A stretch of 63,991 bases of DNA, filler included, from an uncultured Methanoregulaceae archaeon (lineage in GTDB: Archaea; Halobacteriota; Methanomicrobia; Methanomicrobiales; Methanospirillaceae): assembly GCA_964530035.1 (NCBI GenBank). It is 6 parts of 6 records of this genome, joined end to end, with 100 filler letters (N's around TTAATTAATTAA, not from the genome) between each part and the next. Parts side by side here need not be neighbours in the genome. Positions count along the whole stretch, not along the records: positions 22,703 to 33,759 come from CAZGXZ010000076.1; 5 more parts are not named here. One strand, given 5' to 3'. The number at the start of each line of letters is the position of its first letter. The stretch's first letter is position 1. The notes under the pieces were generated by a model. It ran no database searches. It was not told the DNA's origin and worked only from the letters and a program-made list of their open reading frames with translations. Position numbers and translations under genes: made by a program. Below, one piece after another: positions 11,361-44,919 of the stretch.

Positions 11361-11361
11361 G

Positions 11362-11733: not shown

Positions 11734-11847
11734 GTTGCTTCGGCCTTGAATTGAACGTGCAGAGGGACTGGAAGACCGGCGGAGTGTGTCGGACATTCAT
11801 GGCATCAAAAGATAGGGTTTAGAGTCTCTCTGTCAAACTGTTTCACC

Positions 11848-12699: not shown

Positions 12700-12950
12700 T
12701 CCCTGCGGGAACAGCCGCACAAACGGCTTCCGTAATAGAATACCTGGAGGAAGTTCCCCTTCCGCGGGCCATTATCTCCGTATTTAAAATTCGTTTCCTG
12801 GGCCGCGGCAGCCTACAGGGTTGTATCCTTCGATACCCATACGTGGATGCAGCCATAGCCTCACCGGGGTATCGAGACCTTGCGAGTTATCCCCGAAACT
12901 CCAGATGGCTGATCAGGAATACACAGGCTTCCCCGGCAGGATTTGAAAAA

Positions 12951-13616
12951 TTACTTCCCCCGGGAGAGCCAGACAAAAGCGATTACAGGAAAAATATAAA
13001 GGAAGTTGCCCTGGGAGAGGTTGCCGGTATCAAGAAAGATCCCGATTACCGCTGTAGCGGGAAAGATCAGCATCCGGATGTACAGGTCCTTCGCAAAAAT
13101 CCTGGATACCTCGGGGATAGTTAACCGACGATGATCAGTTGCATGCCACCACTGAATCGCCAGGACCGTGCCGCACAGGATGATATTTACATGAAAGGCC
13201 AGTGCGTACGGAAAAACGAGGTCCGTTATACTCATCAGGAGAGAGGTCAGCGGGACAAAGACGATGGCCAGCAGGAAAAGAAACTCGAGATATACGAATT
13301 CCCGATCAACCAGGCGGATATTCCGCATGATTTCAAATGCCAGGACATAGAAAACGGCAAGAATGATAAACGTAAACATGAAGTGAAAGCCGTCGAAACA
13401 GACACGGACAAGATATTCGACTATTTCACGCACATTTGCAGCATCCTCGGCGGTCGGAAGAGGGATATTGTTCTTGACGATAAGGGTCATTGCAAAGGCA
13501 AAGACGCCGTTCATCAGGATCTCAAGCATATCCTGGCCAACCGGCCCACGACAGCACACAGGAGTGCCCTGCTGGCCCGAGGGCCTCCTCTTCAAAAAAG
13601 ATAGCCGGGTGATCAT
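12951..13616 (-). CDS. TMEM175/DUF1211-like membrane protein (second of pair)
   Basis: LEILMNGVFAFAMTLIV resembles TMEM175 helix 1 (RLEAFSDGVFAIAITL); later FLLAIVFVPLTSLL. Confidence 0.75.
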   Translation of the reverse strand: MITRLSFLKRRPSGQQGTPVCCRGPVGQDMLEILMNGVFAFAMTLIVKNNIPLPTAEDAANVREIVEYLVRVCFDGFHFMFTFIILAVFYVLAFEIMRNIRLVDREFVYLEFLFLLAIVFVPLTSLLMSITDLVFPYALAFHVNIILCGTVLAIQWWHATDHRRLTIPEVSRIFAKDLYIRMLIFPATAVIGIFLDTGNLSQGNFLYIFPVIAFVWLSRGK

Positions 13617-14275
13617 TCAAACCTCCTCTCCTCTCCCATGATCCTCCATGACTGCCACGAGGAGACTGCAATAAAGGCAGCCATAGTTCCAAAATAAATA
13701 AACCTGGTGTAATGAACTCCCAGAGATGCCAGTACCATCCCGATGACCGCAGTTACAGGGATGAAAAGCATCCTGACATTCGTGCAATGGATCTGGGCCA
13801 TACCGATATCAGGCAACAGGAGCTGTCGTCGCACGGAAGCGTGCCGCCACTCGAGCAGGAGGAACACTCCGAAGCAGAATACGTTGAGATGGAAAAGGAA
13901 TGCAAAAAATGACTCAAGCAGGAACAGTTCGACGAGGTGGCTGGTGACAGGGATGAAGATCAGCATCATAAGTCCGGCGAAGTGGAGGTAAAGAAAATGC
14001 CGGTCAACCCGGGACAGCTGGTGGAGCATGTGGTACGTGATAATCCAGAACACACCTATTAAAATGAAGGCAAGGATGAAACTCATGATTTGCGGGATCT
14101 GCCCAAAACCGTACTGGGCTATCGTATCATTGACATGATAATCCGCGAATGAGGGGGTCCGGATATTTTTAAAAAGCAGGAGCAGGGTGAAGGCATAAAT
14201 CGCATTCGTCAGCCTGCCAACGTTTACGCGGGTAACAGGCCCTTCCACCAGGAATTTATCCGTCATTGAAGACAA
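13613..14275 (-). CDS. TMEM175/DUF1211-like membrane protein (first of pair)
   Basis: RLTNAIYAFTLLLL, SFILAFILIGVFWIITYH, LMMLIFIPVTSHL; 4-nt overlap with the downstream paralog. Confidence 0.75.
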   Translation of the reverse strand: MSSMTDKFLVEGPVTRVNVGRLTNAIYAFTLLLLFKNIRTPSFADYHVNDTIAQYGFGQIPQIMSFILAFILIGVFWIITYHMLHQLSRVDRHFLYLHFAGLMMLIFIPVTSHLVELFLLESFFAFLFHLNVFCFGVFLLLEWRHASVRRQLLLPDIGMAQIHCTNVRMLFIPVTAVIGMVLASLGVHYTRFIYFGTMAAFIAVSSWQSWRIMGEERRFE

Positions 14276-14369
14276 TAGAAAGTTGACGCTCGGGATGGAT
14301 AAGGTTCACGACAAGACTTGATTATTTTTACCTTCCCTTTCATTCATAAAGACAGGAGGTAGTGGGGAT

Positions 14370-15176
14370 ATGCCGGTTGAACTCCGCGAGTTAAAGACAC
14401 ACAATGAGATGAAGGAGTGTCTGAGGCTCCAGGGAGAGATCTGGGGTCTCACGGATCTCGGAAAAACATCCCCGATAACCCTTTCATCCCTGACCATCCA
14501 ATCCCCGAGGACCGGTTTCATCCTCGGCTGGTTCCTCGGAGGCAGGATGATTGCGACATCCATTATCATGGGGACATTCGAACCAGGAACGGTTTTCGGC
14601 AGGATGTTTGGTATACTTCCAGAATACCGGAACGTGCGGGTCGGACGTGAGATCCACCAGAAGCTCTTTCCCTATCTCGTTTCACATGGGGTGTTGCGAA
14701 TGGTCTGGGCTTATGAACCCCTTGAAGGCCGTAATGCAAACCTCTATCTTAACCGGTCGGGTGGTGAAGTTTTTTCATACAACCCCGACTTCTACATCGA
14801 TGTGGACGAGATGAGCTCGGGTATGCCGACCGACCGTTTTCTTGTCAGGTCAGACCTCAATTCAGAAAGGACACGAACTGCACTATCCCAAGGTCTGCAG
14901 GTCCCCTCTGTTGAAGATGCACTCGCACGTTACCCGGTGGCAACTGCATCGTCTTTTCCTGACAGCCCAGGTATTCTGGTAAGAATTCCCGGTGAGTTAC
15001 AGGATCTCAAGCGATCTGATCCTGCCGCTGCAATGGCATTCAGGACGGAAACCCGGGCTATTTTTTCTGAATACATCAATATACGGCATTATCGTTCCCG
15101 AGCTTTCATAACCGGAGTCACGAACGGGGGACGGGTGAACTGGTACCTCCTTGAAAAAAACGGATTGCCCCAGTAA
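14370..15176 (+). CDS. GNAT-family acyltransferase (resembles N-succinyltransferase-type GNATs)
   Basis: LQGEIWG, GILPEYRNVRVG (acyl-CoA motif A), MVWAYEPLEGRNANLYL, PTDRFLV. Confidence 0.7.
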   Translation: MPVELRELKTHNEMKECLRLQGEIWGLTDLGKTSPITLSSLTIQSPRTGFILGWFLGGRMIATSIIMGTFEPGTVFGRMFGILPEYRNVRVGREIHQKLFPYLVSHGVLRMVWAYEPLEGRNANLYLNRSGGEVFSYNPDFYIDVDEMSSGMPTDRFLVRSDLNSERTRTALSQGLQVPSVEDALARYPVATASSFPDSPGILVRIPGELQDLKRSDPAAAMAFRTETRAIFSEYINIRHYRSRAFITGVTNGGRVNWYLLEKNGLPQ

Positions 15177-15409
15177 ACCGGCTCTTTAAGCGTATTTTCC
15201 TTAATACAGCTCTGAACTATCACATGAAGACAGAGCTGTCCCGGTATCTCATTTCATGGAACTGCCGAGTCCTGCCGGACCTGCACCCACGCGGGCATAT
15301 CCCAGTTGGATTGGCGAAGAAGAGTTGCTTTTAGATGAGCAACTGGGAGAACAGGAGAACCACATCCACATTTCCGCTTCCTTTATACCTTTCCAGGCAA
15401 TTCTTTGAT

Positions 15410-16906
15410 ATGCCTCTTCAACCCCTCCTTGTTGCCAGGGGGTCCAGGGATCTCGGGATCCTGCCTGGCATGGCAAACCGCCACGGCCTTGTCGCAGGTG
15501 CCTCCGGGACCGGGAAAACCGTCACGTTACGAACCCTTGCTGAGAGTTTTTCATCGATCGGTGTTCCGGTGTTTCTTGCAGATGTGAAAGGCGACCTCTC
15601 CGGGATGGCGGTACCCGGCGGTGACAGCCCAAAAATTGCCGAGCGTGCACAACAACTCGGACTGGCGCCCATGGCATACACCGGCTATCCTGTGACATTC
15701 CTTGATGTTTTTGGTCAGCAGGGGCACCCTGTCAGGACCACGGTCTCAGATATGGGTCCCCTCCTCCTCTCGAGGATCCTTGCGCTGAATGACCTTCAGA
15801 CAGACCTTCTGACGGTGATGTTCAGGATTGCGGATGAGCGTAGACTCATCCTCACGGATACCAAGGATCTCAGGGCAATGCTAAGATATATCTCCGAGCA
15901 CACCGCCGAATTAAGGGCTGCATATGGGACAATTTCACCCGCAAGTGCCGGGGCCATCCAGCGGGCTGTCCTCGCCTTTGAACAGGAAGGGGGTTCCGTC
16001 CTTTTCGGCGAGCCCTCGTTTGCGATATCAGACCTCATACGTCAGGACTCATCGGGCAGGGGGGCGATCTCCATCCTCGCTTCAGACAGGCTCATGCGTT
16101 CCCCGAAGGTCTATGCCACATTTCTCCTCTACCTGCTGTCCGAGCTGTTTGAAAACCTTCCCGAGGTTGGAGACCCGGAAAAACCGGCCCTCATCTTCTT
16201 TTTCGATGAGGCCCACCTCCTCTTCACTGACGCTCCGAAAATCCTCCGGGACCGCATAGCGCAGGTTGTCAGGCTGATCAGGTCAAAGGGGGTTGGGGTG
16301 TATTTCGTCACGCAAAACCCCACGGACATCCCTGATGAGATCCTCGGACAGTTGTCCCACCGCTTCCAGCATGCCCTCAGGGCATTTACTGAAAAGGACT
16401 CCCGGGCCATAAAGGCGGCAGCCGGGACATTCAGAAAAAATCCGGCATTCGATACCGCCGAGGTCATCACGACGCTCGGTGTTGGAGAGGCCCTGGTCTC
16501 GGTCCTTGAACCCGGAGGTACACCGTCAGTTGTCGAACGGGCCTTCATCTATCCCCCACACAGCCGGCTCCTCCCCCTGGCTCAGGAGGAACGGCTATCC
16601 GTCCTCCGTTCATCAGTCCTGTATGGTAAATATGACCAGTCCATCGAGCGGGACAGCGCCTTCGAAACCCTCGCACGGGAGTCTGAAAAAGAATCTCAGG
16701 ATAAACAGGAAACTGAGCGTGAAGCAAAACCGGCCTCTCGGGAGAGGAAGCCGCAGACCAGGAAGACCAGTACCCGCAAACCTGCTGAACGAAATATTGC
16801 AGCAGAAGTCGCCGGGACTGCAGCCAAAACAATAGGAAACGAGATAGCCAGGGGGCTTATCCGGGGTGTGCTTGGCTCCCTGACCGGAGGGAGCAGAAAG
16901 CGATAG
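15410..16906 (+). CDS. HerA-like P-loop ATPase (DUF853/YjgR family)
   Basis: ANRHGLVAGASGTGKT, ADVKGDLSG, FFFDEAHLLF, VRLIRSKGVGVYFVTQNP. Confidence 0.92.
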   Translation: MPLQPLLVARGSRDLGILPGMANRHGLVAGASGTGKTVTLRTLAESFSSIGVPVFLADVKGDLSGMAVPGGDSPKIAERAQQLGLAPMAYTGYPVTFLDVFGQQGHPVRTTVSDMGPLLLSRILALNDLQTDLLTVMFRIADERRLILTDTKDLRAMLRYISEHTAELRAAYGTISPASAGAIQRAVLAFEQEGGSVLFGEPSFAISDLIRQDSSGRGAISILASDRLMRSPKVYATFLLYLLSELFENLPEVGDPEKPALIFFFDEAHLLFTDAPKILRDRIAQVVRLIRSKGVGVYFVTQNPTDIPDEILGQLSHRFQHALRAFTEKDSRAIKAAAGTFRKNPAFDTAEVITTLGVGEALVSVLEPGGTPSVVERAFIYPPHSRLLPLAQEERLSVLRSSVLYGKYDQSIERDSAFETLARESEKESQDKQETEREAKPASRERKPQTRKTSTRKPAERNIAAEVAGTAAKTIGNEIARGLIRGVLGSLTGGSRKR

Positions 16907-22602: not shown

Positions 22603-22702
22603 NNNNNNNNNNNNNNNNNNNNNNNNNNNNNNNNNNNNNNNNNNNNTTAATTAATTAANNNNNNNNNNNNNNNNNNNNNNNNNNNNNNNNNNNNNNNNNN
22701 NN
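22603..22702. other. Artificial contig spacer
   Basis: N run with TTAATTAATTAA. Confidence 0.99.
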
Positions 22703-22858
22703 TGAAGATCCCGCGGGTATGCTGGCGGCGTACGGCGTGTTGCCTGCGGACCGGGTTTCCGGCTGTCCTGCTGCCAGACCGCCGAGTACAACAAGGACCA
22801 TGATGAGGCCTGCCAGAGCGATTCGCAATGTTTTGTGGGTTATTCTATCGGAATGCAA
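22703..22858 (-). CDS. Secreted protein N-terminus (truncated)
   Basis: Signal-peptide-like LRIALAGLIMVLVVLGGLAAG; runs into spacer. Confidence 0.55.
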
Positions 22859-23235
22859 GGGACCTCGGGAAGGTGCATAGGAATATCGTGATGATAGTTC
22901 TTAAACATGAACGGTTCCTCCCATTCGAGGACAGGGAACCGTCCTGTCGAATATTGTGGCTGTTTATCCATTCATAGTTCATTCATTGTCCATTGTCCCG
23001 TATTGCAGGAGGATGGTTCCTGCAGATCGCCTGGTCTGGAGGAGGGATGCAATACCATTATATGCCAAAATGTAAAATAAACTTTACAATATATCAACTT
23101 TAAACTACATCCCGGCACCTGAAAACCTGGGTGCACGTGATGGTCCACTTGAGTCCTGGCTCATGGATACGGGTCTTCGCTCCGGGTTACCGGGTGAGGC
23201 CTGGTCCTTCAGCAGGGGAGGTGAAAGAGGTCATC

Positions 23236-23589
23236 ATGTATCATCATAAAGCGACATTCAAGGAAACCGAAGACATATCCCGCATTATCCGGACGGAAAA
23301 TGCCAGGGGGGCCTTTTCCCAGGCGTATGGACTTTATTCTGCCGTCGGAAAAGGAGACCCGGAGGCGATGGACGTTTTCCAAACCTCCTGGTTGAAGGGC
23401 CCTGCTGCAGAGAAGGGTCTGAATAACGGGAAAATCCAGGGATATACAGGAACGTGCGAAACCTTCGCCGCTGTGAGGCATTCTATGTCTCATGAGCAGG
23501 CCACCCGAGATGAAAGCAGTCACTCCAGAGCGTCCTGTGATCATTCCCGATGTCCTGGACCGTCATCACACCCGGAGGTGACCCGCTGA
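23236..23589 (+). CDS. Hypothetical protein coupled to the VTC gene
   Basis: SD-like GGAGGTGA upstream; its TGA overlaps the VTC ATG (TGATG at 23587-23591). Confidence 0.45.
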   Translation: MYHHKATFKETEDISRIIRTENARGAFSQAYGLYSAVGKGDPEAMDVFQTSWLKGPAAEKGLNNGKIQGYTGTCETFAAVRHSMSHEQATRDESSHSRASCDHSRCPGPSSHPEVTR

Positions 23590-24407
23590 TGGAGGCGTCT
23601 GCCCTGCCAGCTCCCGCAACCGGATGTCCTGATATTCATGTCCTTGTCCCTGACTTGTCAGCATTTGAACCGGTATCCCTCGATGAGCTCGAGAACTCCG
23701 GGGCCCGGCTCATGAGCAGGAAGGAGAAAAAATTCCTGATGACGCTGGAACAGTGCAAAGGACTGCTTTCGGACCTTAAAGACACATACAGGGTCCTGGA
23801 GATTGGAAACAGTAAAATTGGGAAATACGAAACGGTATACTACGACACTGACTCCTTCCTGATGTACCTGCAGCACCACAACGGCAAGGCGCACCGGTTC
23901 AAGGTACGGTCACGGTTCTACTGCTCAACCAACAAGACATTTCTCGAAGTCAAGGAGCGGAAGAACACCGGAAGGACCGTCAAGGAACGCATGGAAACAG
24001 GTGCTCCTGGGCCGCTTACCGAAGAGAAATCAGCGGAGTTTCTGAAAAGAGTGTTTCCCTACGACATCAGCATGTTTCACCCGGTCCTCTCCACTATCTA
24101 TAACCGGATAACCCTGGTATCGAAAGACCTCGCGGAACGGATGACCCTTGATGTGTCCTTATCGTTCCGGAACGAAGAAACCGGGTACTCCCTCCCGGGC
24201 ATCGTTGTGGGGGAGATCAAGTATAACCAGCCTCTCTCCTGTTCCAGGGCGTTATCAGGCCTTAAAAAGCGGGGGATACGGAAGACCCGTTTCTCCAAGT
24301 ACTGCATCGGGGTCTCTTTTCTCTATTCGCAGCAGAAACACAACCGCTTCAAGCAACTGCACATGAAGATCGATTCTCTGTCCGGGGATGGTGGTTTATC
24401 ATGCTGA
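23589..24407 (+). CDS. VTC/polyphosphate polymerase domain protein (CYTH-like)
   Basis: LMSRKEKKF, YETVYYDT, HHNGK..RFKVRSR, FLEVK, YNRITL, ERMTLD, EIKY, FSKYCIG; GGAGGTGA before ATG 23589. Confidence 0.88.
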   Translation: MEASALPAPATGCPDIHVLVPDLSAFEPVSLDELENSGARLMSRKEKKFLMTLEQCKGLLSDLKDTYRVLEIGNSKIGKYETVYYDTDSFLMYLQHHNGKAHRFKVRSRFYCSTNKTFLEVKERKNTGRTVKERMETGAPGPLTEEKSAEFLKRVFPYDISMFHPVLSTIYNRITLVSKDLAERMTLDVSLSFRNEETGYSLPGIVVGEIKYNQPLSCSRALSGLKKRGIRKTRFSKYCIGVSFLYSQQKHNRFKQLHMKIDSLSGDGGLSC

Positions 24408-25063
24408 ACCAGCTCGACGCCCTGTACGTGGCAGGGTTCATTGTCAACTTCATATCGGCATTTATCATCATCAGGTTCATCTATTACCCGAGACAGGGTG
24501 AACATGCCTATCTCTTCACGTTCCTTGCCTTTAACACCGTCATATACTTCATTATGGGGCTCTTTACGAGCATCGAACTCTCCATAGGTGTCGGGTTCGG
24601 ACTGTTCGCCCTTTTCTCCATACTCCGGTACAGGACGGAAACGGTACCGATTCACGAGATGACCTACCTTTTCGTGATGGTCGCCCTCCCGATCCTGAAT
24701 TCCATCATCTTCGGGACCGGCCAGTATGAGAAGCTGGTCCTAACGGATGCCATCATTATCGGAGTCATCTGGGCCCTTGAAAAAGGCTGGGGTTTTGATA
24801 CCGGCCAGTACAGCAAGCAGATCGTGTATGAAAAGATAGACCTGATACAGCCCGGAAAAAGGGAGGAGATGATTGCGGACCTGAAGGCACGGACCGGTTT
24901 GAGCGTGACAAACGTGCAGATAGACATGATCGACTTCCTCCGGGACACGGCAAAGATCAGGATATTCTATACAGATATCGCTGACCCTGGAAAAACGGGT
25001 ACGCCCCGGCCAGAAGACGATTCAGCTTCCGGAACGGCGGCGGCAGAACCACCTGCCGGCTGA
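24401..25063 (+). CDS. DUF4956 membrane protein
   Basis: SIGVGFGLFALFSILRYRTETV..EMTYLF; DLKARTGL; usual partner of VTC genes. Confidence 0.88.
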   Translation: MLNQLDALYVAGFIVNFISAFIIIRFIYYPRQGEHAYLFTFLAFNTVIYFIMGLFTSIELSIGVGFGLFALFSILRYRTETVPIHEMTYLFVMVALPILNSIIFGTGQYEKLVLTDAIIIGVIWALEKGWGFDTGQYSKQIVYEKIDLIQPGKREEMIADLKARTGLSVTNVQIDMIDFLRDTAKIRIFYTDIADPGKTGTPRPEDDSASGTAAAEPPAG

Positions 25064-25070
25064 TTTTTTT

Positions 25071-25346
25071 TCATAGCCTGAACTCCGGACCCTTGTCAAA
25101 GAGTTTCTGATAAAGCCTGGAAAATGGGATGGTATACTCTTCAGCAGCCGCTGTTGATTGAAAGAGGGGCCTGTCTCCTTCATGGATTTTTTGGAGGTAT
25201 CCCTTTGAACACAGGAAAGCGATATATTCCTGCCCTGTTTTTGAATTGAGGTCACACCTGCCGATGACTGCAGTAAATGAACGGGCAGTCCGGCAGTAGA
25301 CGAGAATTTCCCAGTATATCTCGTACGGGGTGCGCCTTCCCTTCAT
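25071..25346 (-). CDS. Winged helix-turn-helix DNA-binding protein
   Basis: RRTPYEIYWEILVYC...CDLNSK..QEYIAFL..KGYL. Confidence 0.8.
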   Translation of the reverse strand: MKGRRTPYEIYWEILVYCRTARSFTAVIGRCDLNSKTGQEYIAFLCSKGYLQKIHEGDRPLFQSTAAAEEYTIPFSRLYQKLFDKGPEFRL

Positions 25347-26023
25347 CCCTGGTTCATCCCCATGTTCACCTCAAGTTCTTCTTCGTACCTCCCGATATCC
25401 TCGAGCCGGCCATCCCATGATTTTTTGAAGTTCCCGAACCGGAGCGAGCTCATCAGGCTTATCAGTGCAATGATAAGGGCAAGGAGTGCCAGGGGTATGA
25501 CACGGAGGCTGTCGAGGGTGATACTGATGGATGCCGGCCCGGCGGACAGCGACTGGATGCCTCCCAGGAGGCCCAGGCCGAGGAAACAGAACCCTCCAAG
25601 GAGACAGACATATCTCATTGTATTGACCTGCTTACGGTTTTCACGATAATGGGCGATCGTCCGGATTATCCAGGAGGTCAGTACCTCGGGTGTCACCTCT
25701 CCCTCGTACTTCCTGCATTCGTTCCGTATTTCCGTTATTCCTGACAGAATTCGTGCGCAGGTAATGACCCAGGAAATTCCGAGCCCGAAACATATCATGG
25801 AGAGCATTGCCATCGCCATTCCGGGGACCCCCGCTTCCACACCACCGGTCCCGTGTATCGTGGACCAGACCATGTATTGAACCCCGGTTGCCACCGCCAG
25901 CGATGCAAAGACGAGGTTTATGACCACCAGCAGAAAATACCCGTTCAACTCGGCTGAAAACCGGGCCCATACGTTCTCATTCATCAGGCGGATTCTCCGA
26001 TCACCAGGTATCTCTGCCGACAC
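25343..26023 (-). CDS. Hypothetical 4-TM membrane protein, co-transcribed with the wHTH gene
   Basis: Four hydrophobic segments; 4-nt overlap with the wHTH gene. Confidence 0.7.
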   Translation of the reverse strand: MSAEIPGDRRIRLMNENVWARFSAELNGYFLLVVINLVFASLAVATGVQYMVWSTIHGTGGVEAGVPGMAMAMLSMICFGLGISWVITCARILSGITEIRNECRKYEGEVTPEVLTSWIIRTIAHYRENRKQVNTMRYVCLLGGFCFLGLGLLGGIQSLSAGPASISITLDSLRVIPLALLALIIALISLMSSLRFGNFKKSWDGRLEDIGRYEEELEVNMGMNQG

Positions 26024-26212
26024 ACATGAATCACCATGAACCTAAGATACACGGTCATCATTTCATGATTTTTTCTGCACACCGAGTTCTTCAGGTGTTT
26101 TTCTGAATGTGTCCGCCCTTACTGATGAGGAAAACCCATGGAAGGGCTTCTTATGAAGTCCCAGCGAAAGGAGGGTCTAAATCATCCGTCCCGCCAATAT
26201 TGACTGGAGAAT

Positions 26213-26692
26213 ATGGATCTTCCTGATGTTGTCATCATTGCCATTGCGTTCTCCCTTGGTTTCATCTTGGCATTTCTTCTGTTCCGCCAGCAATCCCGGT
26301 TGATCCAGCAGCGGGCCATGCTTGACCTTGAGCGCTGGCAGGTAGAGAGCGCGGATGCTATCCGGAAGGACTCGGTCAGTCGTTCGCGGTCCGCCCTGAA
26401 AGGCCGGATATCGGAACAGATGGCTCCCCTGCTCCCTGAATTTCCCTATTCCCCTGCAGATGCCCGGTTCATAGGCAACCCGGTTGATTACATCGTATTC
26501 GATGGATATACGGGGGTGAAGGACGACCGGGATGAGTTCGTGAGCGTGGTACTGGTCGAAGTGAAAAAAGGGAGGGGAAAACTCACGAGGAGAGAGGCAC
26601 TTATTAAAAAGGCCGTTGATGAAGGCAGGGTTTCCTGGAGAACCGTCGTCCTCCCTGATCATGATCCCGGCCAGGATGAACCAGGCTGCTGA
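26213..26692 (+). CDS. Membrane-anchored Holliday-junction-resolvase-like endonuclease (Endonuc_Holl family)
   Basis: N-terminal TM; IRKDSVSRSRSALKGRISEQMAP, DARFIGNPVDYIVFDG, EVKKG (PD-(D/E)xK). Confidence 0.88.
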   Translation: MDLPDVVIIAIAFSLGFILAFLLFRQQSRLIQQRAMLDLERWQVESADAIRKDSVSRSRSALKGRISEQMAPLLPEFPYSPADARFIGNPVDYIVFDGYTGVKDDRDEFVSVVLVEVKKGRGKLTRREALIKKAVDEGRVSWRTVVLPDHDPGQDEPGC

Positions 26693-26909
26693 CACGGGTT
26701 GTCCGACCCGGGGGGATACTGGCAGCATGGTTTCAGGACCGGGTCTTTCCGGCCAGGTACCCGGGGCAGGGGTTGTGAAAAAAAAGCAGGGGATACCGTG
26801 AGGCGGTATCATCTCCACCAAGGAGAGGAGGTCCTTCCACATCCGTCCCCCTTTTTCATGCCAGGTATTTCCATTCTTATTATCTCGATGCACACCCCAC
26901 GGCTCCACC

Positions 26910-27857
26910 ATGAAGCCCGTGCCGCAACTCACCATCATGCTCGCAATCCTGATGGCTACCGTTCTCTTCATTGCCGGCTGCACCCAGCCAGCACCGCAGA
27001 CGAATCTCCCAGAGGCTCCTTCCACACTTTCAGGGCACGCACCGGTCATCGCCCCTTCAACCGCTCTTGATATCAGGGACTATGTGGACAACGCCGCATC
27101 TTATGCACGAAATACCTCCAAGAGCACAGCACTCTCCGCATTTAACAACAGGACAGGGCCATTCGTCACGGGTGACGTCTATGTTTATGCCCTTGACTAC
27201 AATGGCACCGCCCTCGCCCTCCCGTTCCAGCCCGAACTGGTCGGTACAGGTTTCCTGGGGAAGAAAGACGCTACGGGTAAAGCCTACGCCGATATTGAAG
27301 TCCAGCTTGTACGCTCTGGTGGCGGCTACCTCCTGTACCGCTATCCGCGGCCTGATGGCAATACAACCGACAGGCTCAAGATAAGTTACGTACGCCCCGT
27401 GGATGATACCTACTGGGTCGGGGCCGGGGTCTACACGAGCGAGGAGCGCCTGATAGACAGGGGACTCAGGGAATTCCTCGGGGAGGCCAGGCAGTACGCC
27501 CTTGCAAATGGCAGGGAAAAGGCGGCATCGGAGTTCAACGACCTGAACGGTTCGTTTATCCGGGATGACCTCTATGTCTTCGCCTATGATTATAACGGGA
27601 CTGTACTCTCATGGCCCTACCGTCCGGACCAGGTCGGTCTGAACCGGCTCAATGCAACCGACCCCTACGGCTCCCATCATATCGCTGGCATGCTTGCCGC
27701 CGCCAGGAATGGGACCGGGATGGTTGATTATTACTCGGTCAGCCCGGAAACAAACAGGACTGAACTTAAGATAAGTCTGGTTACCGATGTCGATGGGACA
27801 TGGTTTATCGGTTCAGGGCGGTACATAGAGCCGGATATGCGTATCCTTGGGGAATAG
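26910..27857 (+). CDS. Lipoprotein with two single-Cache domains
   Basis: Lipobox-like FIAGC; two repeats YVYALDYNGT..LPFQP and YVFAYDYNGT..WPYRP, ending KISYVRPVD..WVGAG and KISLVTDVDG.WFIGSG. Confidence 0.85.
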   Translation: MKPVPQLTIMLAILMATVLFIAGCTQPAPQTNLPEAPSTLSGHAPVIAPSTALDIRDYVDNAASYARNTSKSTALSAFNNRTGPFVTGDVYVYALDYNGTALALPFQPELVGTGFLGKKDATGKAYADIEVQLVRSGGGYLLYRYPRPDGNTTDRLKISYVRPVDDTYWVGAGVYTSEERLIDRGLREFLGEARQYALANGREKAASEFNDLNGSFIRDDLYVFAYDYNGTVLSWPYRPDQVGLNRLNATDPYGSHHIAGMLAAARNGTGMVDYYSVSPETNRTELKISLVTDVDGTWFIGSGRYIEPDMRILGE

Positions 27858-28077
27858 GCCGGGAAATCCCAGCCGGACAAAGATATCCAGCCTGTGAAGA
27901 CCGCTTCTTCATTTCATCTTTTTTCCGCTTCCGGCAGTCAGGATGCCGGCTATAAAGGGTAGTTTCTGGATGCAGATCGAAGAAACCTGAAGATGACGAG
28001 TTCAAGCGTTATTTGATTCAACCCGTATATTCTCAGGTATATCCATTCATGTGACATCCCCGGTCCGCCTGGGCAGG

Positions 28078-28425
28078 TCAGCAGGTCACATGGAGGACAG
28101 CTGAAAATATACGGCTCTCAACGGTAATTTCGTCGAGGATTTCAGGGGTTGGAGCGACCCGTGCGGTGTAGCCCGAGAGAACAGTCCGGGCATCAGGGGT
28201 AATGGGGAGGTCTCCGTACTGACCGGTACCGATATAGATAACCTCTGGTCTCTCTTCAGCCAGGAACCCAAGTTCGTCGGCAGTGAGGGGGGTGTGACCA
28301 TATTCCTTTTTGAACGGCTTTGATCTTTTTTTCTCCCGTTTCGTCACGGAACGGTCACAGTGAATCACGATATCGTGTTCGTACCGGGTGCCGCCGACCT
28401 CTATCCACCCAAACCCGGTTTTCAT
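28078..28425 (-). CDS. Mth938-like (DUF498) domain protein
   Basis: FGWIEVGGTRYEHDIVI, PEVIYIGTGQYG, C-terminal HVTC. Confidence 0.85.
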   Translation of the reverse strand: MKTGFGWIEVGGTRYEHDIVIHCDRSVTKREKKRSKPFKKEYGHTPLTADELGFLAEERPEVIYIGTGQYGDLPITPDARTVLSGYTARVAPTPEILDEITVESRIFSAVLHVTC

Positions 28426-28493
28426 ATGTCTTCAGGGAAGGGATTGCTCTCCTGCGTGAAGAGAGTTCCTTTCGTACTAAAATTTTAAAAAGG

Positions 28494-30545
28494 TCAGGTG
28501 GTTTCCTTGTCCGGCAGAGCAGGCTGCCGTGCACCGCACTTGTCGCAGAACTTCGCGGTTATAGGGAGGACCGCCTCGCACGTGCTGCAGAGTTTGGTAT
28601 CGACCCCGGACGGCGGGGTGTTCCCGCACTTCGGGCAGGACGGCACCTCGAGTCCCATCGGTGTCCCGCAGTGCATACAGAACCGTTTTGCAGGCTCGGC
28701 AAGGATGATCTCGGTCCTGCCCGATACCTGCCCCGTGGTCCCGGTGATAATTGCCCTCCCCACGGCTGTCCCTGAGGTGAATGAGGCAGATCCCGAAAGC
28801 GTCCTCGGCGGTATCACTACCGAGGGTGTGACATTGCCAAGAGTGGTCGACAGGCTGACCTTCCGTTCGTTCTGGGAAGTGATGAACTTCCCCTTGTCAT
28901 TGAGGATCTTTATCGTAAGCAGAGCCGTGGAAATCCCGTCGGCGATAATCTCTCCGGGGTCGGCGGTAATCTCAATCCCTGCTTCGACACACTCAAATGC
29001 GAGGTTGACCTCAGCCTTCTTCCTGTTCTCCTGGGCGGTAACCTTCACCGGCCCTCCTTCTGTCGATGCCGTGAGGATTGCTTCAACCATCGCCTTTCCC
29101 TTCGGGATGATGACGTTTTGAACGGTCCCGGCGGTTGTCGTCATCGTAACCTCACGGTCTTTTTTCTGTGACCGCATGAGGCCGAATGCATTGTTGAAGC
29201 TGACCTGTATCGGGATGGTCGAACTCCCGTCGCAAGGGACGCTCTTTTTCTGTGGTTTTAAGGTGAGGTTTTCCCGGGTCAGGAGGTAGTAGATAATCCC
29301 GGCCGCCAGGACCAGCCCGATGATGCCTGCCAGTATCGTTGGAAGCCAGTCAGGGAGCCCTCCCTGCTGAGATGGTACGACTGGCACAATCTGAGGTGTG
29401 CCGACCGGCGATGGGGTGGCCTGGGGAGTTTCAACCGCTTTAACGGATATCTGCTGTGCAACAGAACTACCAACACCCAGGTTGTCCTTGACAAGCAGCG
29501 TTACCGTGATGGTGCCACCCTTCGTGAAGAGATGTTTTACCGTTTTTCCAGACCCTGTTGTCCCGTCCCCGAAATCCCAGTTCCAGGACGTGATATATCC
29601 ATCGGTGTCCGAGGACGCTGAGGCGTCGAAGCTGACATTCAGGGGAGCTTCACCCCCAAGGGGGATCATGGTGAAGGACCCCTTCGGGGGGTTGTTCGAT
29701 ACCGCCACCGCTCCTGACTGGGAGCCGCCGCCCCCACCTGAAGATGCTCCCGAAGAGGAAGATGATCCCTGGGATGAGGTGTCCTGCTGCCAGGCCCCTC
29801 CTCCAACCCTTCCCGGTTCAGGGGTCGACTGGGTAAGAACTATCCCCGGAGTTACAGGGGCCCTTGTCGGAGTAATGGTCGGCGTGGTTGCAGGAGTTGC
29901 CGTTTCAGTCGGAGTCGGCTGTGCTTCCGTGACCGTGAACGGAGCAGATGCATATGGCGGCTGTGGGTAGATGAGGAGGACCTGCGGGGAGCTGTACCCT
30001 GACGGAGGGGTTATCGACGTGATGTCCAGGGAAAAACTTCCTGCCTGGACCGGGGAGTAGGTGGCCGTAACAAAGCCCTGGGAACCTGTCGTTACTGAAT
30101 TAGACAGGAGTGTTTCCGATCCGGACATAACCTTGTAAACAAGGCCTGCTCCTGATACCGGTGAACCCCCGGTGTCTGTAACCGAGAGGGTTATTGAAAG
30201 CGTCTGACCAATGGACAGTTCCGAAGGGCTGACCGTTACATGGGGATAGGCATATCTGGGTTCAGTGGGTGTCGGAGAAACTGTCACACCACCACTATAC
30301 ACGATGTCGTAATCCGGATAGCGAACTTGGAGAGCATCTTCCTGTATAGTATTGGCAAAATTCGCTGAATTAATACTGGAGAGATCCTTGCTTATCCTTA
30401 AATCGCCGGATTCTGCAGTTACAGACACAAAAGGAATAACAAAAAAAATAGCTGCGAGGAGGATGATAAGTACCGCCACCATAAGATTCGCCCGGGGCAA
30501 TACCGATTTTTCAACAGGTTTTTTTTCCGCCACGTCCTTCACCAT
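28494..30545 (-). CDS. Membrane protein: Ig-like + T/P/S/G linker + PKD, TM, two invasin/Big_1-like domains, double zinc ribbon
   Basis: PKD motif APLNVSFDAS.S.D.DG.ITSWNWDFGDG; TM near aa 400-423; IIADGISTALLTIKI; C-terminal CMHC..CPKC..CSTC..CDKC. Confidence 0.8.
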   Translation of the reverse strand: MVKDVAEKKPVEKSVLPRANLMVAVLIILLAAIFFVIPFVSVTAESGDLRISKDLSSINSANFANTIQEDALQVRYPDYDIVYSGGVTVSPTPTEPRYAYPHVTVSPSELSIGQTLSITLSVTDTGGSPVSGAGLVYKVMSGSETLLSNSVTTGSQGFVTATYSPVQAGSFSLDITSITPPSGYSSPQVLLIYPQPPYASAPFTVTEAQPTPTETATPATTPTITPTRAPVTPGIVLTQSTPEPGRVGGGAWQQDTSSQGSSSSSGASSGGGGGSQSGAVAVSNNPPKGSFTMIPLGGEAPLNVSFDASASSDTDGYITSWNWDFGDGTTGSGKTVKHLFTKGGTITVTLLVKDNLGVGSSVAQQISVKAVETPQATPSPVGTPQIVPVVPSQQGGLPDWLPTILAGIIGLVLAAGIIYYLLTRENLTLKPQKKSVPCDGSSTIPIQVSFNNAFGLMRSQKKDREVTMTTTAGTVQNVIIPKGKAMVEAILTASTEGGPVKVTAQENRKKAEVNLAFECVEAGIEITADPGEIIADGISTALLTIKILNDKGKFITSQNERKVSLSTTLGNVTPSVVIPPRTLSGSASFTSGTAVGRAIITGTTGQVSGRTEIILAEPAKRFCMHCGTPMGLEVPSCPKCGNTPPSGVDTKLCSTCEAVLPITAKFCDKCGARQPALPDKETT

Positions 30546-30763
30546 CTGGTCGATTACAATGCTTCGCTGATATGGTATTTATAAGATTTGTGGATAAAGG
30601 AAAAGTGGTTTTCACCTGTCATTCACGAACTTTGAAATCGTTATTTTCAAGATCCTTATCTTAAAAAAGGTAAGCCTGTCGAGCTCCGACCGTTTCCGGA
30701 AGAGGGGGTATCTCCGGTTCAACACACAATTTTTTTTAGGGATGCGTCCCTGATTACTACACT

Positions 30764-31744
30764 ATGAAAAGACCTCCGGCAAGTCTGCTTTTTCTCATTA
30801 TTTTAGCAATGCTACTGCCTTTTGCATGTGGCTGCACGATACCCTTCCTTCCGCAGCAGCAGGGAAAAGACAGCAATCCCGTGACCCTGGTCCCCTCTGA
30901 AACCCAGCCTGTTCCAGGGACCACCGCTACCGGAGCCGCTCCGACACAGGGACAAGGTCCTGATTCCGGCAATGTTCCTCCGGCTACCGGTGCACCTGCC
31001 ATTCCCGTGACAGAGGGGGGGCAGGTACCTGCAACACCGCAGGCAACTGGATCCCAGGGAGGAGTGTCGCCATCCGAAACCGGAGGCAATGGACAAAGTC
31101 CTGAAGTAACCGGGAGTATGACTGATGGCCCCGTTACGTCATATATCCTGAGCGAGGACATCAACCGGCATTTCATCAACATCGCTTTTGGCAACAAGAG
31201 GACCGCAATCGACCGGGCCCAGCCAGCAATGCTCGCGGTATCCGTCCGGGACGGATATGTGGATGCCGATATTGCCGCTCTCAAGGGATTCATCCAGGAG
31301 TTCAACAAGCTTTCAAGGACAACGACCCTGTCCGAGAACATTAAGACAGAAACCCCGGGAAAGCTGAACATCCGGTTCCTGAAACAGGACGGCTTAAAGG
31401 AGATCGATATGAAGAACATCCAGGACACCCTCCGTGACCCCCAGAATAATGATATCCAGATCCTGGTATCCACGAAGGCTGCCAATGGCGACATGACTGC
31501 ATATGTAAACGCTGATCTCCAGGGTGAAAGGAAGATCCACTACATGCTGCGTGCCATTATGTACATGCTGGGATTTGCCGGCTATACCGCGGATTATCCC
31601 GACAGCCTCTTCAATACCTATACAGATACAACAACAAAACTCTCGATTATTGACAAGGAAGCCGTGAAACTGATGTACGGCGGGAACAGCATAACGAGCG
31701 GGATGAATATTGATGCCGTGAAGAGAGTGCTGATGATGAAGTAA
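30764..31744 (+). CDS. Putative lipoprotein, P/T/G-rich linker, DUF2927-like C-terminal domain
   Basis: Signal ending FACGC; C-terminal MLGF...PDSLFN...LSIIDKEAVKLMY pattern. Confidence 0.6.
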   Translation: MKRPPASLLFLIILAMLLPFACGCTIPFLPQQQGKDSNPVTLVPSETQPVPGTTATGAAPTQGQGPDSGNVPPATGAPAIPVTEGGQVPATPQATGSQGGVSPSETGGNGQSPEVTGSMTDGPVTSYILSEDINRHFINIAFGNKRTAIDRAQPAMLAVSVRDGYVDADIAALKGFIQEFNKLSRTTTLSENIKTETPGKLNIRFLKQDGLKEIDMKNIQDTLRDPQNNDIQILVSTKAANGDMTAYVNADLQGERKIHYMLRAIMYMLGFAGYTADYPDSLFNTYTDTTTKLSIIDKEAVKLMYGGNSITSGMNIDAVKRVLMMK

Positions 31745-31830
31745 TCGCTTTTCTTCCTTGCTCAGCATTCCTTTTCGTTTTTAAGGATTCCGCATCATTT
31801 TTATGCTTTTTTCCGTTTATTCGCAACGGC

Positions 31831-31847
31831 TGACAAAGCTATAAATA
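31831..31847 (+). promoter_or_regulatory. Putative archaeal BRE/TATA promoter of the tail-sheath operon
   Basis: tgacaaagcTATAAATA about 85 nt upstream of the sheath ATG, after a T-rich terminator-like tract at 31748-31782. Confidence 0.55.
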
Positions 31848-31932
31848 GTCTTATTATGATGCTTTAAGAGTCAGACGGAACCTATTCCATCCAGGGATGC
31901 GAGGATGAAATGGACGGGAGATTGACGATAAT

Positions 31933-33288
31933 ATGACCAGGATTCTTCCAGGTGTCGAGATACAGGTGATCAAGGAGATCGTTCCGCAGCAGCTCAACCC
32001 CTCCGGAGTTGTAGCCATGATCGGGACGACCGAACGGGGCGAAATCCTTGTGCCGACCCATGTCAGCAGCTACCGGGAATTTGTTGACAAGTTCGGAGCA
32101 GGTGAACAGTCATCGATTATCCGTGATGCCAAGCAGGCCTTCCAGAACGGTGTGTTCGAGATCGTCGTCACGGCAATCAGCGGGAAAGAGGGGTCCAAGG
32201 CCGGTTACACGTTCAAGGATCTGAAAAACAGGGACACGGTCCGGCTCGAGGCACAGCAGTCCGCCGAATCGGGAAATGCCATCAAGGTAAAGATCGAGAA
32301 CGGCACAGTGTCGGATTCGGTAAACGTCATCGTTTCAGATGGGGCAACGGTGGAGATCTTCGAGAACCAGGCCATGAACCCCGCCGGTGAAACGTACCTT
32401 GTCGAGCACATCAATACCCATTCCAAACTCGTGACGGCAAAAGACCTCCACTCAACGGCAAAACCCCCGAATAACAACCCTGCCGAGTGCGAGGTGAACC
32501 TGGAGGGGGGGATGACGGGAGTCATAACGAAGGAGGATTTCGAGAAGGCACTCGAAAAACTCGAAGGGGACCCGGACGTCGATATCGTGATGGCCTGCGA
32601 TATAACTGACCCCGAGATCCATGCTCTCATCGAAGCCCACTGCATGAAGATGAGCCTCGATGCCAAGAACCGGATCGGTCTCGGGACGGTTTCACGTGGA
32701 GAGAGCATCGGCGACATCTGCAGGAGGACGACCACGCTGGCGAGTGACCGGTTCGTGCTGATCGCCCCATACGGGAACCTCGGGGCGGTTGCCGGCCTCA
32801 TCAGTCGCCTGAACTACTACGAGTCTCCGACCTACAAGCCCATAAGCGGGATTGCAAAACTTGAACGGGACTACACGCCCTCCGAACAAATGGACCTCCT
32901 CAAGGCCGGGATACTTCCGCTTGAGGCCCAGAGGGGGAGAGGCATTATTGTAGTCAAGGGAATTGCGACGAGCAAGGAACAGATCAGCGTGATGAGGATA
33001 GCCGATCATTCCGTCAGGGGAGTAAAAAGCGTGGCTGACCTCTTTATCGGTACCCTCAACTCGCCGACGGGCAGGTCTGCACTCAAGGGAAAGATAACCG
33101 AGTTCATGATGAGGATGGAAAGCGAGGGTGCGATCGTCCCGAGCACAGACGGGAAGGAACCTCCGTATCTCCTTGACGTCTACAGCTCGGAACTCGATTT
33201 TGCCCAGGGGATCGTCCGGGTCGACATGGCGGTCAGGCCGGTCCGTGCGATGGACTACATCTATGCCACCATCAAGGTGGAGGCGTAA
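31933..33288 (+). CDS. Contractile phage-tail sheath-like protein
   Basis: N-terminus LPGVEIQVI..GVVAMIGTTERG...P..VSSYREFVDKFG and C-terminus GIVRVDMAVRPVRAMDYIYATI are hallmark sheath ends; ISVMRIAD in the conserved C-domain. Confidence 0.9.
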   Translation: MTRILPGVEIQVIKEIVPQQLNPSGVVAMIGTTERGEILVPTHVSSYREFVDKFGAGEQSSIIRDAKQAFQNGVFEIVVTAISGKEGSKAGYTFKDLKNRDTVRLEAQQSAESGNAIKVKIENGTVSDSVNVIVSDGATVEIFENQAMNPAGETYLVEHINTHSKLVTAKDLHSTAKPPNNNPAECEVNLEGGMTGVITKEDFEKALEKLEGDPDVDIVMACDITDPEIHALIEAHCMKMSLDAKNRIGLGTVSRGESIGDICRRTTTLASDRFVLIAPYGNLGAVAGLISRLNYYESPTYKPISGIAKLERDYTPSEQMDLLKAGILPLEAQRGRGIIVVKGIATSKEQISVMRIADHSVRGVKSVADLFIGTLNSPTGRSALKGKITEFMMRMESEGAIVPSTDGKEPPYLLDVYSSELDFAQGIVRVDMAVRPVRAMDYIYATIKVEA

Positions 33289-33309
33289 ACCCCGGGAGGA
33301 TGAACTATC

Positions 33310-33738
33310 ATGGCTGAAGCAACAGGACTTAACGCAACTTTCTTCTCGGCACGGGAAAGCCAGGTCACGGTGGAATCGGAACGGCTTGCAGGCCTGCAGT
33401 CTCTTGAGTACAAGATCGTCAAGAACCCGATAGACATCATTGGAACAGGCTCGGATAAGAGACAGGGATTCGACTACGGAGTCCTCTCTGTTACAGGAAA
33501 GATGAAGATAAAATCTGTTTCCACCACACTTGACACCAAGTTCCAGGAGACCGATCCCGACAAGGCCAAGTTCACCATGACCGCCGAGCTCAAGGGTGGG
33601 GCCGGATCGGGTTCTAAGCCGAGGAAGCTCACATTCGTCGAGTGTTACCTGACAGACAGGGAATTTTCAATGGATGTCAATGGCGTGGGTGTCGTGCTCT
33701 ACAGTTTCACCTGCAAGGAAGTTACCGGGGACAAGTGA
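33310..33738 (+). CDS. Putative tail tube protein
   Basis: 142 aa, beta-rich pattern, 21 nt after the sheath with GGGAGGA SD; KLTFVECYLTDREFSMD...YSFTC resembles tube C-termini; call rests mainly on size and position. Confidence 0.7.
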   Translation: MAEATGLNATFFSARESQVTVESERLAGLQSLEYKIVKNPIDIIGTGSDKRQGFDYGVLSVTGKMKIKSVSTTLDTKFQETDPDKAKFTMTAELKGGAGSGSKPRKLTFVECYLTDREFSMDVNGVGVVLYSFTCKEVTGDK

Positions 33739-33759
33739 GGGATGAAAGGGGCACGGGAT

Positions 33760-33859
33760 NNNNNNNNNNNNNNNNNNNNNNNNNNNNNNNNNNNNNNNNN
33801 NNNTTAATTAATTAANNNNNNNNNNNNNNNNNNNNNNNNNNNNNNNNNNNNNNNNNNNN
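33760..33859. other. Artificial contig spacer
   Basis: N run with TTAATTAATTAA. Confidence 0.99.
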
Positions 33860-44819: not shown

Positions 44820-44919
44820 NNNNNNNNNNNNNNNNNNNNNNNNNNNNNNNNNNNNNNNNNNNNTTAATTAATTAANNNNNNNNNNNNNNNNNNNNNNNNN
44901 NNNNNNNNNNNNNNNNNNN
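44820..44919. other. Artificial contig spacer
   Basis: N run with TTAATTAATTAA. Confidence 0.99.

Follow-up and report, generated by a model that had tools for sequence, protein, structure and literature searches.

A headless gene cluster of methanogens and Methanoperedens probably encodes a tailocin-type contractile injection system with a linked membrane protein

Sheath and Tube Genes

We analyzed a 63,991-nt stretch of archaeal DNA (the window), which carries the first genes of a contractile tail gene cluster. The window joins six contigs (C74, C75, C76, C77, C78, and C121) of the genome G000 (229 contigs, 2.36 Mb, 86% complete), separated by N spacers with a stop-in-all-frames linker (11261-11360, 22603-22702, 33760-33859, 44820-44919, and 55818-55917), and segments that lie side by side in it are not genomic neighbors. 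A preliminary description of this DNA reported a 451-aa sheath-like gene followed 21 nt later by a 142-aa tube-sized gene, and proposed that they belong to a headless, host-promoter-driven contractile injection system (CIS) of a distinct lineage in the Methanomicrobiales. Both open reading frames (ORFs) were confirmed on the plus strand (31933-33288 and 33310-33738), at the 3′ end of contig C76 (22703-33759), which stops at 33759. The nearest named record is an uncultured metagenome-assembled genome of the Methanospirillaceae (97% over the part present), rather than of the Methanoregulaceae, the family named before.

The sheath gene is the first gene of the cluster. Its product matches Pfam Phage_sheath_1 (PF04984; 6.9e-23) and PHROG 279, annotated as 'tail sheath' (8.6e-46 over residues 3-450), with a further match to Phage_sheath_1C (7.8e-06, 26.3 bits) just below the cut-off of 26.9. 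For the 142-aa protein, the Pfam search gave Phage_tube_2 as a sub-threshold match only (3e-4) and no match to the T4 gp19/Afp1 family (PF06841), whose usual pattern is also not visible by eye, yet the AlphaFold (AF2) model, built from an alignment with eight homologues (predicted local distance difference test, pLDDT, 72.9), gave 41 Foldseek matches in the PDB at E ≤ 1e-3. The matches listed comprise tail-tube and Hcp proteins and chains from phage-tail or CIS complexes, led by the diffocin tube (8v3t), the phage 812 tube, and Hcp1. From this model, the 142-aa protein is predicted to have a generic tail-tube fold.

The TATA-like box and T-rich tract described upstream of the sheath gene are present. 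The box, TATAAATA, lies on the plus strand at 31840-31847, 93 nt 5′ of the sheath ATG, and is preceded by T-runs that follow the stop of the upstream gene at 31744; its role as a promoter is predicted. A TATA-like box was found 93-157 nt before the sheath ATG in 6 of 11 loci (at -93 in both this genome and L008, and at -110 to -157 in L009, L012, L010, and L015), and none was found upstream of the sheath in L013 and L017. A TATA-like box thus travels with the cluster at a similar distance in other genomes, so that the box here does not establish a promoter belonging to the host. The long leader between the box and the ATG might be regulatory.

Three contigs of 151-198 nt, all 100% identical and located within the sheath gene, were found in two metatranscriptome libraries from two further studies; carried-over DNA is possible, and we take them as a weak hint of expression. 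In the RNA libraries X19 and X20, neither the tube gene nor the gene before the sheath was covered by a contig, a gap that is not evidence, and X15 is probably DNA. An exact stretch of 1960 nt was present in 14 DNA runs from six studies, comprising metagenomes of an anaerobic digester, bioreactor sludge, wastewater, and a biogas fermenter, all of which are flagged as possible sources.

Reconstruction of the Tail Gene Cluster

The cluster (~18.3 kb) is split over C76 and a second contig of G000, C19. The last 52 nt of C76 are exactly the first 52 nt of C19 on the same strand, and the join gives a tube-to-chaperone spacing of 19 nt, the value also seen on L011, one unbroken contig from a genome of the same genus. 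A 40,657-nt DNA contig of run X8 covers window positions 30700-33759 and extends beyond; since this run is possibly the source sample, it does not count as independent. We accepted the join on the basis of the overlap, the shared spacing, the gene order conserved in relatives, and the X8 contig. Once C19 is joined, the third ORF previously read from an ATG at 33742 (MKGARD) turns out to be a 21-aa dead-end frame, and the real third gene, of 119 aa, starts at 33758.

Coordinates on C19 are given in the numbering of L004, where the cluster occupies 51-16547. The third gene encodes a putative tail assembly chaperone (119 aa, 51-410; weak match to PHROG 344), with an ATG that begins at window 33758-33759 (C19:51), and a 69-aa ORF lies in its -1 frame (425-634). 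These are followed by genes for a protein in the tape-measure position (670 aa, 716-2728), a DNA_circ_N-like hub protein (2725-3879), a Phage_GPD/GpP-like hub protein with a long coiled coil (3967-5937), a lineage-specific insert (5952-11204), a gpV-type spike (Phage_base_V, 11176-11856), a PAAR protein (11875-12267; 6.4e-16), a gp25/Sheath_initiator protein (12279-12716), Baseplate_J (ORF 12557-14260; 2.4e-29), a P2 gpI-like protein (14261-15181), a 205-aa protein in the fiber position (15218-15841, the 205 aa being encoded by 15224-15841), and a terminator-like last protein of 232 aa (15849-16547), the last two without a Pfam or PHROG family. Pfam GP46 was also assigned among the cluster proteins. 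The recovered contig bears out the proposal of a headless machine, with baseplate, spike, PAAR, and tape-measure genes, no capsid, portal, or terminase gene, and cellular genes thereafter, the first of these encoding a histidine kinase and large surface proteins. An AAA ATPase, which the preliminary description had considered together with gp25, J, PAAR, and the tape measure, is absent from the cluster, and the other four are present.

The chaperone gene closes with an A6 run and the stop, where the -1 frame stays open over the 100 nt ahead and the 224 nt beyond. Seven of the nine loci compared have an A6-A10 run within the final 36 nt of this gene; in six of them the -1 frame remains open for 212-227 nt past the run, and in the seventh, L016, for 110 nt. 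L010 and L018 do not fit a simple extension of the chaperone frame. This poly-A site is the hallmark of a G/GT-type tail chaperone, from which we infer frameshifting itself.

The tape-measure protein is rich in Pro, Ser, Arg, and Gly and evolves much faster than the genes around it, with 54% identity to the same-genus copy (97% for the sheath). Across genomes it shares only a C-terminal motif of about 40-60 residues, present in four of the five ORFs given (not in L014). Its odd composition raised the question of a wrong frame, which we rejected, as the frame is open over 670 codons in two genomes and the C-terminal motif is conserved.

The insert between hub and spike (5952-11204 here; 7392-10773 in L011) is common only to this and the same-genus genome. 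Its products are a 686-aa protein that belongs to no family and has a disordered, acidic N-terminus, a 182-aa protein that is helical, and a secreted beta-helix protein (NosD/CARDB) encoded on the opposite strand; two further ORFs, of 84 and 101 aa, look spurious. A search of a language-model atlas with the 686-aa protein returned only unnamed bacterial clusters at 0.90-0.92. The insert proteins may be cargo or passengers.

The last two proteins were approached through models. The 205-aa protein has 20 relatives among 1.84 billion representatives, and its model (pLDDT 83.3) consists of an N-terminal helix and a jelly-roll with weak fold matches (TM 0.3-0.43) to sugar-binding Fbs1, haemagglutinin heads, and CBM35/CBM15; we take it to be a short protein at the tail-fiber position that binds a receptor or acts as an adaptor. 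Between this genome and the three complete genomes of family f14, its sequence is 61-62% identical. For the 232-aa protein and three homologues, Pfam gave nothing useful even at E ≤ 10, and language-model features placed it with an SP10_terminator cluster (0.93, 187 shared features) and, more distantly, with Mu Gp37 (0.80), a lead that it may be the tube-sheath terminator.

Absence of Head Genes

The ~9.2 kb of C76 before the sheath gene (22703-31932) encode VTC and DUF4956 proteins, two membrane proteins, a Cache sensor, a DUF498 protein, a PKD/Ig/zinc-ribbon membrane protein, and a DUF2927-like lipoprotein, and a family scan of the ORFs found no head, packaging, or integrase family among them. 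The view that only cellular-looking genes lie upstream holds as regards head genes, but the PKD/zinc-ribbon gene belongs to the tail system, as detailed below. Cellular genes also fill the upstream flanks (8.8-10 kb) of L008, L009, L010, and L012 (three Methanoperedens contigs and one Methanocella contig), including those for Cdc48, D-aminoacyl-tRNA deacylase, FtsZ, fumarate reductase subunits, an ammonium transporter with P-II, an HtrA-type protease, KaiC-like ATPases, and a pilin-domain protein. Housekeeping genes likewise make up the two flanks in the complete genomes G068 and G058 (serine hydroxymethyltransferase, CBS proteins, a GTPase, OapB/OapC, an RNase P subunit, chemoreceptors, FdhD, MoeA, a methyltransferase, and a histidine kinase). 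The scanned flank ORFs of these four contigs and two genomes contained no head, packaging, or integrase family either.

Five carriers (G000, G068, G058, G078, and G283), of which G058, G068, and G078 are complete, were also searched genome-wide. Phage_capsid, Phage_portal, Terminase_6N, and TerL_ATPase (PF05065, PF04860, PF03237, PF03354) were each found in none of the five, with positive controls that worked; Portal_Mu and Pvc16_N were likewise found in none, but their controls were silent everywhere, so these two results are uninformative. No tRNA gene lies on C76 or C19, the nearest in G068 and G058 being 5-6 kb off; no direct-repeat search was made. No holin, endolysin, or other lysis family was found in or beside the cluster in this genome, G058, and G068, archaeal lysis genes being poorly known.

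Three contigs filed as 'viral' in IMG/VR (L019-L021), with sheaths 48-59% identical to the present one, carry the same tail cluster without head genes on the DNA available. They came from an alignment-based scan; a scan with the single sheath sequence gave none. On one of them, L020 (12,316 nt), the part from the hub to the terminator-like end (487-7129) stands 1.8 kb before a sheath-tube-chaperone start (8959-11269), a layout that represents either tandem clusters or a circularly permuted, small, tail-only element.

Distribution and Selection

Scoring of 8000 candidates gave 914 homologues of the sheath at E ≤ 1e-3, and the best 120 are 59-96% identical to it. Named carriers are found in Methanocella (including Methanocella arvoryzae and M. 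paludicola, and complete genomes of cultured strains), Methanoperedens, Methanothrix, Methanomethylicia, and Methanomicrobiaceae. Within a set of 41 close relatives, the cluster occurs in just two, this genome and one of the same genus. In a phylum sample, 9 of 401 genomes carry the sheath, among them seven of the 15 from family f14 and one of the seven from family f4. The cluster is thus no general trait of the Methanomicrobiales, the group to which the preliminary description had assigned the lineage.

The preliminary description had suggested a comparison of synteny. Fourteen core genes stand in the same order in the complete genomes G058, G068, and G078, beside housekeeping genes, and also in L008-L012 and L019-L021 up to the contig ends. 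This set of 14 genes recurs with identical boundaries in at least ten loci of several archaeal families, and no match to a core gene contains an internal stop where the contig reaches. Against the same-genus copy, at synonymous divergence (dS) of 0.5-0.8, the ratio of nonsynonymous to synonymous substitution (dN/dS) is 0.027 for the sheath, 0.05 for the chaperone, and 0.10 for both the tube and the hub; it is 0.25 for the first hub protein, 0.24 for the 686-aa insert protein, and 0.44 for the tape measure. The cluster is under purifying selection and is not a decaying remnant. Sheaths that are 69-78% identical across archaeal orders, in unrelated cellular neighborhoods, point to horizontal spread together with strong constraint, and indicate that the cluster has spread horizontally among methanogens and Methanoperedens.

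These data bear directly on the alternative that the cluster is a decaying or inert remnant of a tailed provirus, that is, of a Mu-like or PBSX-like myovirus without its head module. Such an origin would suit the Mu-type gene order with the families DNA_circ_N, GpP-like, GP46, and Phage_GPD, the filing of three relatives as viral, and the patchy spread in relatives and phylum alike. Set against this are the constant gene set and boundaries of the loci without internal stops, the dN/dS values of 0.03-0.10 for sheath, tube, chaperone, and hub, the four head families missing from all five carriers, and flanks in which the scan found no head, packaging, or integrase family and no tRNA abuts the cluster. 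We regard a remnant as very unlikely.

Relationship to Known Contractile Tails

Sequence searches against solved structures were used to compare the cluster with known tails. J is nearest to the phage 812 baseplate (3.3e-19), the diffocin TRI-2 protein (6.5e-15), and the phiCD508 triplex, and matched no chain of an extracellular CIS (eCIS) at E ≤ 0.1. gp25 is nearest to phage 812 (1.8e-08), followed by the Streptomyces and Algoriphagus CIS. A sheath profile built from 28 sequences had as its best solved match the haloarchaeal CIS sheath 9ezm (1.7e-14), over the N-terminal ~110 residues only, a structure cited in PMC11566945; next came phage 812 (2e-10), the Streptomyces CIS (2e-08 to 4.4e-08, over ~160 residues), phiCD508, PVC (6.1e-06), and Afp3 (3.3e-04). 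Among 50,697 phage records the identity of the sheath did not exceed 27.8%, over no more than 65% of its length; 16 records matched, and the 15 listed come from bacterial phages throughout, none from an archaeal virus. This agrees with the earlier suggestion of a distinct lineage. Tails of the Mu and PBSX types are also indicated by four Pfam families, DNA_circ_N, GpP-like, GP46, and Sheath_initiator.

With Mu-like phages and Firmicute myophages such as phage 812, the cluster shares the order sheath-tube-chaperone-tape measure-N-P-spike-gp46-J-I and the poly-A site for chaperone frameshifting; unlike them, it has no head, connector, packaging, replication, or integration genes, and its sheath is remote from theirs. 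The R-type tailocins (the diffocin of Clostridioides difficile, PBSX-type elements, and R-pyocin) are likewise chromosomal and headless with a full contractile tail set, and among them diffocin provides the best fold match of the tube as well as the J match, with gp25 falling in the PBSX-type Sheath_initiator family. The present cluster differs from these tailocins in being archaeal, in having no recognizable lysis cassette or regulator, in its remote sequence similarity throughout, in the very short and highly conserved protein at the fiber position, and in its strictly linked membrane protein.

The other candidate for a close relationship is an ordinary eCIS of the Afp/PVC type, also termed phage-like protein-translocation structure (PLTS), as catalogued in Methanomethylovorans hollandica and anaerobic methanotrophic archaea (ANME). 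Systems of the Afp/PLTS lineage have been described in haloarchaea, M. hollandica, and ANME (PMC4122934, PMC9012536, PMC12180501, PMC11566945, as far as the accessible parts of these sources go). They are headless too, with a PAAR-tipped spike and with a largely similar arrangement of the genes for sheath, tube, tape measure, hub, spike, PAAR, gp25, J, and I; archaeal PLTS have GPD and base-V domains on separate genes (PMC4122934, accessible part), as here, and the best solved match of the sheath profile is haloarchaeal. The present cluster, however, has no AAA+ ATPase of the Afp15 type, either in the cluster or in the flanks of this genome, G068, and G058, and the only AAA protein near a relative's cluster (L008) is a standard Cdc48 with CDC48_N domains ~4 kb 5′ of the sheath. 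A search with hmmscan found no Afp16/Pvc16 cap (Pvc16_N/DUF4255, PF14065) among the cluster proteins, the last of which resembles another terminator family by its language-model features. The tube falls outside the T4-gp19 family, and J and gp25 both resemble phage 812 and diffocin more closely than any eCIS chain. In Supplementary Data 1 of Geller et al. (PMC8213781, accessible part), eCIS = 0 is given for M. arvoryzae MRE50, M. paludicola SANAE, and M. conradii, though the first two species carry the present sheath, and M. hollandica and Methanoperedens nitroreducens are listed as eCIS-positive. On the strength of the missing ATPase, cap, and gp19-type tube and of the zero entries for Methanocella, the cluster appears from its sequences to be distinct from the Afp/PVC type, and we give very little credence to its being an ordinary member of that group. 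Two PLTS types have been described in ANME (PMC9012536, in the part accessible), one of which could overlap with the present lineage.

Taken together, the cluster probably encodes a complete, chromosomal, headless, tailocin-type CIS of the phage-tail (Mu/PBSX/diffocin-like) lineage, distinct from Afp/PVC-type eCIS, maintained by purifying selection and shared horizontally among methanogens and Methanoperedens.

The Linked Membrane Protein

On the minus strand of C76, a gene at 28494-30545 encodes a 683-aa membrane protein, delineated by Pfam (PKD, Big_1, Invasin_D3, DZR) and hydropathy. It consists of a transmembrane (TM) helix at residues 22-40, a PKD/Big_1 ectodomain, a second TM helix at 397-415, and a C-terminal domain (416-683) of Ig-like (Invasin_D3/Big_1) repeats and a double zinc ribbon. 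Only the C-terminal domain is conserved in other genomes, at 38-50% identity, and it is predicted to be cytoplasmic. In 36 homologues, a TM helix directly before this domain was found in 34, an N-terminal TM helix in 34, and four CxxC motifs within the last 70 residues in 32. The ectodomains vary among the homologues (PKD, Big_1, CarboxypepD_reg, NosD, NHL, Calx-beta, and others), and there are often two or three copies per cluster.

In the complete genomes, all six copies of the gene stand beside the cluster (1/1 in G058, 2/2 in G078, and 3/3 in G068), just 5′ of the sheath or just past the last gene and on either strand; in G087 and G095 the gene lies on the contig of the sheath within 16 kb. 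In the sample of 401 genomes, which are kin, it was found in 8 of 9 sheath-positive and 2 of 392 sheath-negative genomes. The gene belongs to the tail system and is strictly linked to it. Chance adjacency from a large paralogue family was considered and rejected, as the C-terminal domain is single copy in G000.

A complex prediction of the C-terminal domain with the fiber-position and terminator-like proteins gave a median of 0.27 against a mark of 0.32, which is no evidence either way.

Proposed Mode of Action

The machine probably punctures neighboring cells. The baseplate would be formed by the hub (DNA_circ_N-like and GPD-like proteins), the gpV-like spike with its PAAR tip, and the wedge proteins gp25, J, and I. 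The chaperone, with its -1 frameshift, would load the 670-aa tape measure, and the tube and then the sheath would polymerize on it to a set length; by the usual rule of 1.5 Å per tape-measure residue, this would be roughly 100 nm. The terminator-like protein would then cap the assembly. Upon a trigger, contraction of the sheath would drive the tube, spike, and PAAR through a membrane. The linked membrane protein may dock or trigger the machine at the cytoplasmic membrane of the producer through its C-terminal domain while the variable ectodomain senses the outside, so that firing would be contact-dependent, as in the haloarchaeal type VI secretion system (T6SS)-like machine.

Docking or triggering at the producer's own membrane by way of the linked protein is the mode that we favor, albeit tentatively and with slightly less than even confidence, because the conserved part of that protein is predicted to be cytoplasmic, where the tail is built, because its ectodomains are variable and multiplied, and because there are no evident lysis genes. 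The CIS of haloarchaea are bound to the membrane, and a gene for a conserved membrane protein is invariably present in the clade that uses this mode (PMC11566945, accessible part); firing of the Streptomyces CIS requires the bitopic membrane protein CisA (PMC12237407, accessible part). The CIS of Halogeometricum borinquense (PMC11566945) resembles the present system in being archaeal, T6SS-like, tied to a conserved membrane protein gene, the source of the best sheath match, and a likely agent of cell-cell antagonism. It differs in belonging to the Afp/tCIS-related lineage and in its putative anchor (Hbor_38620), which in the accessible part of that source has six TM helices and a cytoplasmic domain of ~150 residues; the present partner, with two TM helices and an Ig-like/zinc-ribbon domain, is set apart by architecture. 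A further-reaching version, which we consider possible though somewhat less likely than not, is a second, independently evolved archaeal type VI-like weapon, in which a tailocin-type tail is tethered by a modular receptor whose C-terminal domain holds or triggers the baseplate and whose swappable ectodomains set when or at whom it fires.

Alternatively, the particle may be a released R-type tailocin, which would assemble in the cytoplasm, leave through lysis of a fraction of the cells, bind related archaea via the lectin-like protein, and kill by membrane puncture; the membrane partner would then serve release, regulation, or self-protection. We consider this nearly as likely as docking. It would account for the full tail module with a tape measure and a frameshifted chaperone, both of which a T6SS is without, for a baseplate and tube nearest to those of diffocin and a Firmicute myophage, for the lack of a recycling ATPase in cluster and flanks, for the helix and jelly-roll at the fiber position that resemble sugar-binding modules, and for the fact that most copies have no obvious cargo gene. 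The absence of a lysis family in or near the cluster counts against release, although this is a weak point since archaeal lysis genes are poorly known. In addition, the fiber-position protein, so similar in the f14 (Methanocella-type) copies of a different family in the phylum, is unusually constant for a receptor binder, and a strict link to a partner with a predicted cytoplasmic C-terminal domain has no role in known tailocins.

A third possibility is a suicidal intracellular CIS of the Streptomyces type, in which stress would lead the partner to recruit free particles to the producer's membrane and bring about regulated cell death. Several of the named carriers are presumably filamentous or aggregate-forming archaea, which would fit such a role, and the partner resembles CisA (PMC12237407) in being a separate membrane protein with a conserved, predicted cytoplasmic domain. 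The Streptomyces CIS kills its producer, whereas the variable, multi-copy ectodomains of the partner suggest recognition outside the cell, and the PAAR-tipped spike and lectin-like outer protein suggest an external target. Moreover, the sheath profile reaches the Streptomyces CIS only through the short matches given above and J matches no CIS chain. We consider this mode unlikely.

Several points weigh against the headless, docked machine that we prefer. In the flanks of L008, L009, L010, and L012, 30 of 40 ORFs were scanned, and the other 10 are small, six of them lying in the last 2.2 kb before the L012 sheath; for G068 and G058, 52 of 63 ORFs were scanned (7 of the 11 omitted being core cluster genes), and several flank ORFs in these two genomes have no family. 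The head search used a few Pfam families, which a divergent archaeal capsid or terminase could escape. No effector or immunity pair was identified. G109, an assembly of 220 contigs, has the sheath without the partner, and G196 and, weakly, G073 have a partner-like gene without the sheath. The cytoplasmic placement of the C-terminal domain comes from hydropathy and the positive-inside rule, and the terminator assignment from language-model features, in each case as the only basis. The predicted lectin-like jelly-roll would be no less suited to an outward receptor binder, and thereby to a released tailocin, than to docking. Finally, assembly, firing, and target follow general knowledge of contractile tails, the present system being known from its genes.

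Previous Records and Significance

To our knowledge, archaeal CIS are known only from the Afp/PLTS lineage. CIS are a known kind of machine; an archaeal tail of the tailocin type that has a membrane partner of its own appears to be new. A search of the literature on tail sheaths, tailocins, and proviruses of Methanocella, methanogens, and archaea found no description of the lineage, though subscription papers or the eCIS catalogue of Chen et al. (2019) could hold one. As far as their accessible text goes, the archaeal examples of Sarris et al. (PMC4122934) are the Halobacteriales and M. hollandica only, with Methanocella unmentioned, and among archaeal CIS only the haloarchaeal ones have been studied, those of methanogens and ANME being called unexplored by the authors of PMC11566945. 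The lineage has been missed by at least one large eCIS catalogue. If active, it would serve for killing or cell-cell contact among archaea that account for much of the world's methane production or consumption, and would also provide a compact, 14-gene archaeal delivery device. If the tethered-weapon reading is true, methanogens and Methanoperedens in digesters, paddy soils, and sediments would engage in contact-dependent antagonism. The presence of cultured Methanocella strains with complete genomes among the carriers makes direct testing possible.

Neighboring Genes

The gene just 5′ of the sheath (30764-31744) encodes a lipoprotein-like product, with a Cys-containing signal peptide, a Pro/Thr/Gly-rich linker, and a weak DUF2927 match (6.7e-04). 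It has one paralogue, on contig C8, and no counterpart beside the cluster in other genomes. On the far side, the PAS/HATPase histidine kinase gene (L004 17532-18533) gave tblastn matches on ~40 other contigs of G000 at 22-49% identity, an unusually large family for a 2.4-Mb archaeon. At the start of C76, the VTC-domain and DUF4956 genes are adjacent (23550-25063), a pair that we take to be tied to polyphosphate handling.

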